In this document: one piece after another, positions 1 through 1,550 of the stretch
Layout of the letters: every line of letters starts with the position of its first letter
How positions within the stretch are numbered: position 1 is the stretch's first letter
NCBI RefSeq assembly: GCF_003334355.1
Contig: NZ_QOWP01000086.1
Length of the DNA stretch: 1,550 nucleotides
From: Escherichia coli
Lineage (GTDB): Bacteria; Pseudomonadota; Gammaproteobacteria; Enterobacterales; Enterobacteriaceae
Direction: 5' to 3' (one strand)
Made by a program: the position numbers and the translations under genes
The notes under the pieces: model-generated
What the model saw: only the letters and a program-made list of their open reading frames with translations
The model's database searches: none
Told to the model about the DNA's origin: nothing

Positions 1-1550
1 GATGGCCACGGGATTGGTGCGCCGACTGGGTAGCTTTCTGGTGGAAGATTTTTCGAGGTATAAACTTCTGCCCAGTCTTCCTCAAAACCATAGCCATCTC
101 TTGAGGAACGGTAGAACAGACCTCCATTTCTGTAATGTGCCTTCATCTGCAAGGTCCGGCAACTTCCGACTCCGGTATAGAAGTTAACCAGAATATAGGT
201 GTCGCCAGAGCGGGTGACATTGTAAGCGCCTGATTCGGCATTCCAGGGAACACCACCATCCGCATCGGCATATGTATCCGTTGCCCTTCTGGCAAAAGCA
301 GCCACATGCGCGGCGGTTAAAGTGATATCAGTAGAACCATCAAATGGAACACCGGATATTTTTCTTGCAGTCTGAAGTTTTGTAGCAGTTGCAGCATTAC
401 CAGTGGTGTTCTGATTACCCGTAGTGTTTACACCTGGAAGGTTAATATTTGCAGAACCGTCGAAAACAACTCCACCGATAGATCTTGCCGTCTGCAATTT
501 CGTGGCTGTACTTGCATTACCATTCAATGAACCAGTTAATCCACCTGTAACAGACAACGGACCTGAAACTGTTCCTCCGGTTGTTGGCAGTGCTCCAATA
601 TCTGATGGTGTAGGTTTCTGATGTGAGCTATACATCGTATAAACAACACCATAGGTAACGCTGGAAGGCTTACTCGCTGAATATGTTGGCGAGGTATAAA
701 CAGAAACTGACGCATTTGCAGTACAATCCCAATGGATATTTACACTCGTCGCATAATTGCCAATCTCAACGTAAATATCATATGTATCGCCGGATGTGTT
801 GATCCAGGCGAAATTCGTTAATCCGACGGCTGTACGCTTCCACAAAGCCCCGGTAATTCCTTTGGGGTTTCCATTGCCTGCTCGTAGAACCAGTTCTGAA
901 ATGCCTGCCTGATGTGGGGAACCGACGTTGTAACCAGCGCCACCAATCAATGCGATGTAAACGATGGAACTCGCTTGTGGCATGGTAACCGTAGCCAGTT
1001 TGAACCACCCAGCCCCGCCAGAGAAAGACATCGTTACTGAATTTAAAGTACCAATATCTTTCGGCGTTAATGTTATATCCGCAGTCAGTGCTTTTCCGTT
1101 AACTTTTCGGTTAGATGGCACCCTGCTATTCGCATTGTCATTGGCTGCTTTAACTGCTTTTGGCGTTGCGGCCAGCGATTCACTGGTGCTATCAACAGCA
1201 CTGCTAAGTTTCACAACACCTTTAGTTGTAAGGCTTGCGTCTTCCATCGCAACTGCACCGGCAATCTCTTCAGCACGATCAGCAGCAGCTTCCGCACGGG
1301 TCGCAGCGGATTCAGCAGTAGTTTTGCTCTGAGATGCTGCCGTCGCACTGCCTGCCGCCTCTGTTGCTTTCGTGGATGCCGTCGTGGCGCTGCCCCGCGC
1401 TGCTGACGCCTGTCTGGTCGCCTCATCTTTTGAAGCAGACGCCGATGATGCCGATGACGCCGCCGAACTGGCTGACGATGCGGCTGCCGTTTTTGAGGAT
1501 TCTGCACGGGTTTCCGACGCTTTCGCGTTCGTTTCGGATGTCTTCGCTGC
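1..1550 (-). CDS. Phage/prophage side tail fibre protein (lambdoid Stf-like), internal fragment; both ends lie outside the window
   Basis: Minus-strand frame with codons at + 1550..1548 down to + 5..3 is open for all 516 codons. This frame is absent from the ORF track, consistent with no in-window stop. Translation begins AAKTSETNAKASETRAESSKTAAASSASSAASSASSASASKDEATRQASAARGSATTASTKATEAAGSATAASQSKTTAESAATRAEAAADRAEEIAGAVAMEDASLTTKGVVKLSSAVDSTSESLAATPKAVKAANDNANSRVPSNRKVNGKALTADITLTPKDIG and ends ...SKNLPPESYPVGAPIPWP. The Ala/Ser-rich rod, the SESLAATPKAVKAA motif, the KLQTAR..FDGS..I.L repeats and the GAPIPWP motif are all characteristic of enterobacterial side tail fibre proteins as I recall them. 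Family assignment is from memory, not a search. Confidence 0.9.
3..23 (-). other. GAPIPWP junction motif at the window edge
   Basis: The last seven complete codons of the in-window translation read G A P I P W P (minus-strand GGC GCA CCA ATC CCG TGG CCA). As I recall it, this is the first part of the GAPIPWPSD motif shared by lambda Stf-type and other tail fibre proteins; the expected following residues lie beyond + position 1. Confidence 0.7.
318..398 (-). repeat. Tail-fibre repeat unit 2 (protein-level repeat NAATATKLQTARKISGVPFDGSTDITL)
   Basis: Residues 385-411 of the translation; same TATKLQTAR-x-I-x-GV-x-FDGS-x-x-I-x-L pattern as unit 1, 40 residues downstream of it. Confidence 0.8.
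438..518 (-). repeat. Tail-fibre repeat unit 1 (protein-level repeat NASTATKLQTARSIGGVVFDGSANINL)
   Basis: Residues 345-371 of the translation; matches unit 2 at 20 of 27 positions. Confidence 0.8.
531..1031 (-). other. Unassigned central domain of the fibre (about 165 aa), possibly a beta-rich module
   Basis: Residues 174-340: MSFSGGAGWFKLATVTMPQASSIVYIALIGGAGYNVGSPHQAGISELVLRAGNGNPKGITGALWKRTAVGLTNFAWINTSGDTYDIYVEIGNYATSVNIHWDCTANASVSVYTSPTYSASKPSSVTYGVVYTMYSSHQKPTPSDIGALPTTGGTVSGPLSVTGGLTGS. Composition is rich in G, T, S, V, Y and W with alternating hydrophobic residues; I cannot assign a named motif from sequence alone. Confidence 0.4.
1143..1172 (-). other. Conserved tail-fibre motif LAATPKAVKAA
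   Basis: Residues 126-136 of the translation (SESLAATPKAVKAAND). As I recall it, the (S/T)ETLAATPKAVK motif recurs in lambdoid and related enterobacterial tail fibre proteins. Confidence 0.7.
1248..1550 (-). other. Ala/Ser/Thr-rich low-complexity segment of the fibre (putative N-proximal shaft region)
   Basis: Residues 1-101 of the in-window translation are dominated by A, S, T with scattered K/E/R (e.g. KTAAASSASSAASSASSASAS, TRAEAAADRAEEIAGA). The DNA here is visibly more GC-rich than the rest of the window, about 65% in one hand-counted 60-nt block versus about 38-45% in blocks further 5' on the + strand. Confidence 0.75.
1440..1457 (-). repeat. Short tandem 9-nt repeat (2 units) encoding SSA-SSA within the Ala/Ser-rich segment
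   Basis: Minus-strand codons TCA TCG GCA / TCA TCG GCG; + strand reads cgccgatgatgccgatga at 1440..1457. Confidence 0.6.

Follow-up and report, generated by a model that had tools for sequence, protein, structure and literature searches.

A probable trimeric Knob domain just upstream of the collar in a lambda-like side tail fibre of Escherichia coli

The window considered here, a stretch of 1,550 nucleotides from Escherichia coli (contig NZ_QOWP01000086.1 of assembly GCF_003334355.1), is a minus-strand fragment of a lambda-like side tail fibre gene, the product of which is referred to below as Stf. An earlier note, made from the sequence of the window, had picked out a segment rich in aromatic residues and arginine, which it took for a compactly folded knob or collar that immediately precedes a recognized module boundary, the 'GAPIPWP junction', and for which it could give no fold name. 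This segment belongs to the knob family typified by Mu S′, P2 H and P1 S (residues 319–413 of 8JU3), an assignment on which sequence, motifs and predicted fold agree. We consider it likely that the segment is the trimeric Knob of the lambda-type Stf, in which it would act as a structural node for folding and registration of the chains and as a constant joint. Residues are numbered from the product of the window unless Stf is named; window residue n is Stf residue n+356.

The assignment of the fold begins with a solved homologue. A phmmer search against the PDB matched query residues 417–510 to residues 323–415 of 8ju3_A (independent E value 3e-20), and a profile of 55 diverse family members matched the same chain at E 2e-35 over 94 of 96 positions; this profile found no other solved protein in the PDB. 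The entry 8JU3 is the phage Mu G(−) tail fibre S′ (gp52) of Mori et al. 2024 (Virology 593:110017), as cited in PMC11915804. When given the family alignment, AlphaFold2 predicts a compact domain of six strands, with a pLDDT (predicted local distance difference test) score of 92.1 and a predicted template modelling score of 0.81; over the final block, which is the linker, pLDDT is lower, at 79. The knob core, a compact beta domain, comprises approximately 87 residues. The top match in a Foldseek search of the PDB is again 8JU3, at a template modelling (TM) score of 0.83, 1.6 Å root-mean-square deviation (rmsd) and 45% identity, and is followed by the fibres of the R2 and R1 pyocins (TM approximately 0.6, rmsd 3.5–4 Å, 11–18% identity). 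More distant structural matches are to the Knob domains of R-type pyocin fibres, phi11 gp45, T4 gp34 and phage K gp144.

It is these neighbours that give the fold its name. Those of the segment include 5EFV, 5M9F, T4 gp34 and 6EU4, which are the neighbours given for pyocin Knob1/Knob2 (Buth et al. 2018, PMC6116203), whereas those of the pyocin lectin foot (4MTM, 4Y9V, 2CGZ and others) are absent from its Foldseek list. The fold is therefore that of the fibre 'Knob', where the pyocin knob that was aligned is identified from the neighbour lists rather than from residue ranges. The 'Pyocin knob' appears in RBPseg as the mobile pseudo-domain D7 of tail fibres (PMC12143355). The pyocin-type Knob is a domain of approximately 85–95 residues, built from a sheet of five or six antiparallel strands that loops close off, and is located between rod-like or shaft segments of a receptor-binding fibre. 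The segment agrees with this description, with shaft repeats upstream and a linker, Collar and needle downstream. The compact folded knob of the earlier note is thus borne out by the model and by the structural match to a solved knob. An enzymatic domain was also considered and was rejected, as there were no matches to enzyme folds.

The residues that characterize the family are all present in the window. Numbered by position in the 97-residue query, and taken from the alignment of the 55 diverse members, they are W25, G30, Y32, S52, Q57, N64, G66, Y69, R70, R73, D74, G77, F78 and E79, and the motif W..(I/V)YT that ends the domain is found as well. The existing domain families describe the segment less evenly. 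Pfam gp37_C (PF12604) matches a 99% identical fragment of 140 residues (P0001) partially and weakly, at its residues 34–103 (model positions 10–70 of 95, E 1.5e-6), and is precomputed on several fragments that contain the segment, but goes unreported when the 516- or 1075-residue protein is scanned with Pfam. The name gp37_C is misleading for the knob because T4 gp34–37 gave no match in a search with the knob profile. The PHROG tail fibre families 6722 and 4277 cover the segment, and neither full-length Stf nor the segment has a match in NCBIfam. A similar dependence on context was seen elsewhere in the protein, in that Phage_fiber_2 is reported in the 516-residue fragment and not in the 1075-residue scan, while gp37_C is reported in the 140-residue fragment only; scanning whole proteins is therefore an unreliable way of assigning domains in these low-complexity fibres.

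The junction that follows the segment is a true module boundary, as the earlier note had supposed. The Pfam Collar domain (PF07484) is found at Stf 866–913 (E 1.6e-11) and starts at GAPIPWP, so that the identity of the segment itself as a Collar was rejected: of the two terms offered for it, knob stands and collar belongs to the next domain. Stf 862–1075 is 69% identical to T4 gp37 812–1026, which we take to be the crystallised receptor-binding tip. In a tblastn comparison of the 1075-residue Stf with lambda, the only aligned stretches are 1–352, 315–499 and 863–1075, and the segment has no counterpart in lambda Stf. The points at which homology to lambda Stf (863) and to the T4 gp37 tip (862) restarts both lie within the SYP that precedes VGAPIPWP. 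As Collar, T4 gp37 tip and lambda Stf homology all begin there, the junction is real. Mu S (G+, 5YVQ) likewise has no knob according to the profile search.

Whether the segment is a routine part of the Stf shaft depends on the reference that is chosen: absent from lambda Stf, it is routine in StfR of the E. coli K-12 Rac prophage (b1372), residues 809–905 of which are identical to it at 96 of 97 positions. The earlier note was thus right in its structural reading, but the novelty it implied does not hold. Of 5426 complete E. coli genomes, 1848 contain the 291-nucleotide DNA of the segment, in up to six copies per genome and for the most part at 95–99% identity. Among phages, tblastn located the domain in 224 records; the carriers include lambdoid phages, P2-like H, S′ of Mu and D108, P1 S, Felix-O1-like fibres and JenK1, and in the P2 record the domain is found at residues 494–564 of the 736 in H. 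A word-indexed search for homologues returned almost solely truncated or frameshifted E. coli fragments, and an exhaustive search of 1.84 billion representatives was used instead, which gave 189 clusters at E ≤ 1e-3. The knob family is modest in size and mostly enterobacterial. Many of the database entries that contain the knob are frameshifted or truncated (P0006, P0007, P0019, P0027 and P0045), and read, for example, ...AEVYTSKIFHQKATQSAHQS in a different frame. Stf genes may thus often become pseudogenes, or assemblies may be in error at this place.

Within E. coli the domain scarcely varies. Among 17 E. coli Stf-type proteins in which this knob is paired with the collar, mean pairwise identity is 98.8% for the knob (minimum 96.6%) and 98.7% for the collar, compared with 77.7% for the distal tip and 59.5% for the 60 residues upstream. 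Beyond this group, the surroundings of the knob are readily exchanged. For pairs of representatives whose knob cores are at least 75% identical, the downstream sequence is unrelated in 228 of 524 and the upstream sequence is also unrelated in 228 of 524, where a flank was counted as unrelated if its identity fell below 30%. The W..(I/V)YT end is usually followed in relatives by a linker of the form KP(S/T)xxD(V/I)GA, after which come the collar, the Mu S′ tip, the P2 H tip, shaft repeats or other domains. The knob may also be internal, as at residues 774–865 of the 1585-residue fibre of phage CMS-2020a, and some proteins have two, three or four copies in tandem.

Some further observations on these modules may be recorded here. 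The Stf-type representative P0037 (938 residues) contains GAPIPWP twice and also matches the knob in two places, so that its knob/collar region appears to be duplicated. In the CMS-2020a record (L008; 107.6 kb, circular and unannotated), the open reading frame (ORF) at 2415–7169 encodes the fibre, which has the rod, middle domain and knob of the window; beyond the knob come more modules, the middle domain for a second time and a P2-H-like tip motif, and its C-terminal stretch resembles, by eye, an intramolecular chaperone. In the window itself, the motif Y-T/S-x-x-x-KP-S/T-x-x-D-V/I-GA, which in relatives forms the junction after the knob, closes the middle domain at positions 591–632 (YSSHQKPTPSDIGA), and a related motif, TAxxVxAF / SAxDVGAF, opens the knob. 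The recurring linker looks like a shared splice point for the exchange of modules in these fibres.

The minus strand of the window is a single open frame over all 1550 bases, which gives 516 codons. Its DNA is 99.7% identical to a prophage gene of E. coli EC2341 that is annotated as 'prophage tail fiber N-terminal domain-containing protein' and has a product of 1075 residues; the gene is flanked by a lom remnant and a tail fibre assembly gene, which is the position of stf in lambda. The ORF listing for the plus strand contains short ORFs only, and those that overlap the segment were set aside, being antisense to a well-supported gene. From the N-terminus, the product of the window consists of the following parts.

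1251..1550, minus strand: Ala/Ser-rich rod, residues 1–100; 57% Ala+Ser and zero aromatics; aligns to the lambda Stf rod.
1113..1235, minus strand: Phage_fiber_2 repeat, residues 106–146; Pfam PF03406, E 1.1e-18.
561..1055, minus strand: middle, beta-rich domain of the same fibre, a beta-sandwich, residues 166–330.
318..524, minus strand: two shaft repeats of approximately 41 residues, at residues 343–371 and 383–411; read from the translation.
57..317, minus strand: knob domain core, window residues 412–498 (TAAHVAAF...WAEVYT), Stf 768–854.
27..56, minus strand: linker SKNLPPESYP from knob to collar, window residues 499–508; 10 residues.
3..26, minus strand: VGAPIPWP, first strand of the Phage Tail Collar domain, window residues 509–516, at the end of the window.

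The Phage_fiber_2 repeat matches Mu S 105–156 in both 5YVQ and 8JU3. The pattern of the shaft repeats is (N/T)GNA(S/A)TATKLQTAR.I.GV.FDGS..I.L, and the second of them (383–411) leads directly into the knob. This repeat precedes the knob in StfR as well, and comes after it in some relatives. These repeats were unreported by the Pfam scans, and both a DNA repeat scan and an Rfam scan of the window were empty. In the EC2341 prophage, a frameshifted recombinase lies downstream of tfa at 9190–10794 (L002), in the position of a pin/invertase gene. The same region has a gene annotated as 'TIR domain-containing anti-phage reverse transcriptase', a defence gene at the fibre end of a decayed prophage.

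The composition by which the segment was originally noticed is largely as the earlier note described it. Nucleotides 24–314 encode residues 413–509, and the 96-residue peptide quoted in the note is present exactly, as residues 413–508; its end had therefore been placed one residue too far, V509 being the first residue of VGAPIPWP. Residues 413–509 include nine Tyr, four Phe and two Trp (15% aromatic), seven Arg (7%) and one Cys, and the aromatic content is 0% in the Ala/Ser rod (1–100) and 2% in the Gly/Thr repeats (331–412). The sharp difference from rod and repeats is therefore upheld by these percentages, and also by shuffling, as only 39 of 20,000 shuffles of the 516-residue protein gave any 97-residue window with as much Phe, Trp, Tyr and Arg. 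It does not extend to the whole protein, because the middle domain (166–330), which contains the second Cys, is likewise aromatic-rich at 10%. Alternatively, the shaft could be fibrous and continuous here, with no discrete domain and a shift in composition that arose by chance, for which the only argument is the prior expectation that fibres are compositionally patchy. We regard the chance of this as close to negligible. It is ruled out by the shuffle test, by the fold predicted with high confidence for the monomer, by the Foldseek match and by the solved homologous domain, and the 189 representative clusters, with their conserved boundaries, also speak against it.

Mu S′ and the R-pyocins, whose fibres are solved, provide an analogy from which the function of the domain can be proposed. 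The segment would be one chain of a trimeric Knob, in which each chain forms a small six-stranded antiparallel beta structure and the three copies pack around the fibre axis as they do in those fibres. The fibre would thus have a globular bulge after its last shaft repeat and ahead of the Collar, with which the T4-gp37-like receptor-binding tip starts. There the knob would most likely serve as a node for folding and for registration of the trimer, and as a rigid, constant joint; in E. coli, knob and collar stay approximately 99% identical, in contrast to the upstream shaft and the downstream distal tip, which are exchanged or have diverged. From one phage to another the knob moves as a self-contained module, and its two ends are the recombination joints. 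It has been argued that a double hydrophobic core makes knobs important in the folding of trimeric fibres (Buth et al., PMC6116203). The present analysis establishes the domain's fold, homology, position, distribution and pattern of conservation, whereas its trimeric packing and structural role are inferred from this argument and from the solved pyocin and Mu fibres. Several considerations weigh against this proposal. The axial packing is carried over from other fibres. A knob is not needed for collar or tip to fold, given that lambda Stf, the T4 gp37 tip and Mu S (G+) all function in its absence. Furthermore, the near-invariant residues include the charged R70, R73, D74 and E79, which could mark a binding site and not a core, and knob-like domains have been proposed to bind saccharides (PMC6116203).

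The last two points lead to the alternative that the knob is a secondary receptor-binding site, in which the polar patch YRSxRDxxGFE binds a conserved surface glycan such as the lipopolysaccharide (LPS) core. It would make a second contact above the tip and fix the orientation of the fibre, as has been proposed for Knob2 of the R-type pyocins. We judge this to be possible but unlikely. The family is found in enterobacterial phage fibres, several of them from phages that are known to use LPS (P2, P1, Mu and Felix O1). R73 and D74 do not vary among the 55 diverse members, and R70 and E79 hardly do; such invariant Arg, Asp and Glu residues could equally be explained by salt bridges between the chains. 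Buth et al. 2018 (PMC6116203) mapped both specificity-related diversity and bound ethylene glycol to Knob2, and K1F's knob-like beta-prism binds sialic acid (PMC6116203). Unlike pyocin Knob2, however, the present knob varies less in E. coli than any other part of the distal fibre (98.8% identity, against 77.7% in the tip), and the ligand is a putative one. Knobs that are far from the tip, or in tandem, also suit a spacer better than a receptor site. A more specific form of the idea, which we hold to be doubtful, is that the polar cluster Y69-R70-x-x-R73-D74-x-x-G77-F78-E79 forms a glycan or LPS-core pocket conserved in the lambda-type Stf, P2 H, P1 S, Mu S′ and Felix-O1-type fibres. If it did, fibres that are otherwise unrelated would have a common second anchor above their variable tips, orienting the fibre on the cell surface as proposed for the R-pyocins.

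The knob might instead be an integral part of the receptor-binding tip, inherited and folded as one unit with collar and needle, and would then be needed for the assembly of the tip that depends on the Tfa chaperone. In E. coli Stf a knob of 98–100% identity is indeed almost always followed by the same collar, and the Felix-O1-like fibres, at 40% identity, keep knob, collar and His-rich repeats in the same order. This is nevertheless very improbable, since the homologous collar and tip of T4 gp37 and lambda Stf exist without a knob, closely related knobs are followed by unrelated modules in the 228 of 524 pairs described above, and the knob alone folds confidently in the model. A structural trimeric Knob therefore continues to be the interpretation we favour.

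The domain is real but ordinary. About a third of complete E. coli genomes have it, and so does StfR, a K-12 reference protein with the same sequence; the structure of a homologue is solved, the literature already has a name for the fold, and a Pfam family gives a partial match. Nothing about it is new. Its value lies in annotation and engineering, as it supplies a clean boundary, from knob through 10-residue linker to collar, just upstream of GAPIPWP. Knob and collar together are the part that stays constant where a variable shaft is joined to a variable tip, which could be used in designing chimeric Stf fibres or in reading host-range mosaics.

Among known systems, StfR is like the present Stf in having the last shaft repeat, knob, collar and tip in the same order, and differs in its middle (StfR 520–780, in place of the beta-sandwich domain) and in the insert of its distal tip. 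In the Felix-O1-like fibres, the knob, collar and His-rich repeats run collinear with Stf. Lambda Stf and the T4 gp37 tip share with it the module from VGAPIPWP onwards, at 68% and 69% identity, respectively, and have no sequence-detectable knob upstream of that junction. In Mu S′, by contrast, the knob is shared and the tip is not: the knob is followed by a short tip of the Mu/P1 type, of approximately 75 residues, that works with the chaperone U′, whereas in Stf it is followed by the Collar domain and a T4-gp37-like, His-rich needle tip. The carriers differ too, Mu S′ being a baseplate fibre of a myovirus and Stf a side fibre of a siphovirus. Knob1 and Knob2 of the R1 and R2 pyocins (6CL5, 6CL6, 6CT8/6CU2; PMC6116203) resemble the segment in fold class, size and place in a trimeric fibre, although profile searches found no relationship at the level of sequence. 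Pyocin Knob2 is hypervariable and is thought to set specificity, whereas the knob described here is nearly invariant in E. coli.
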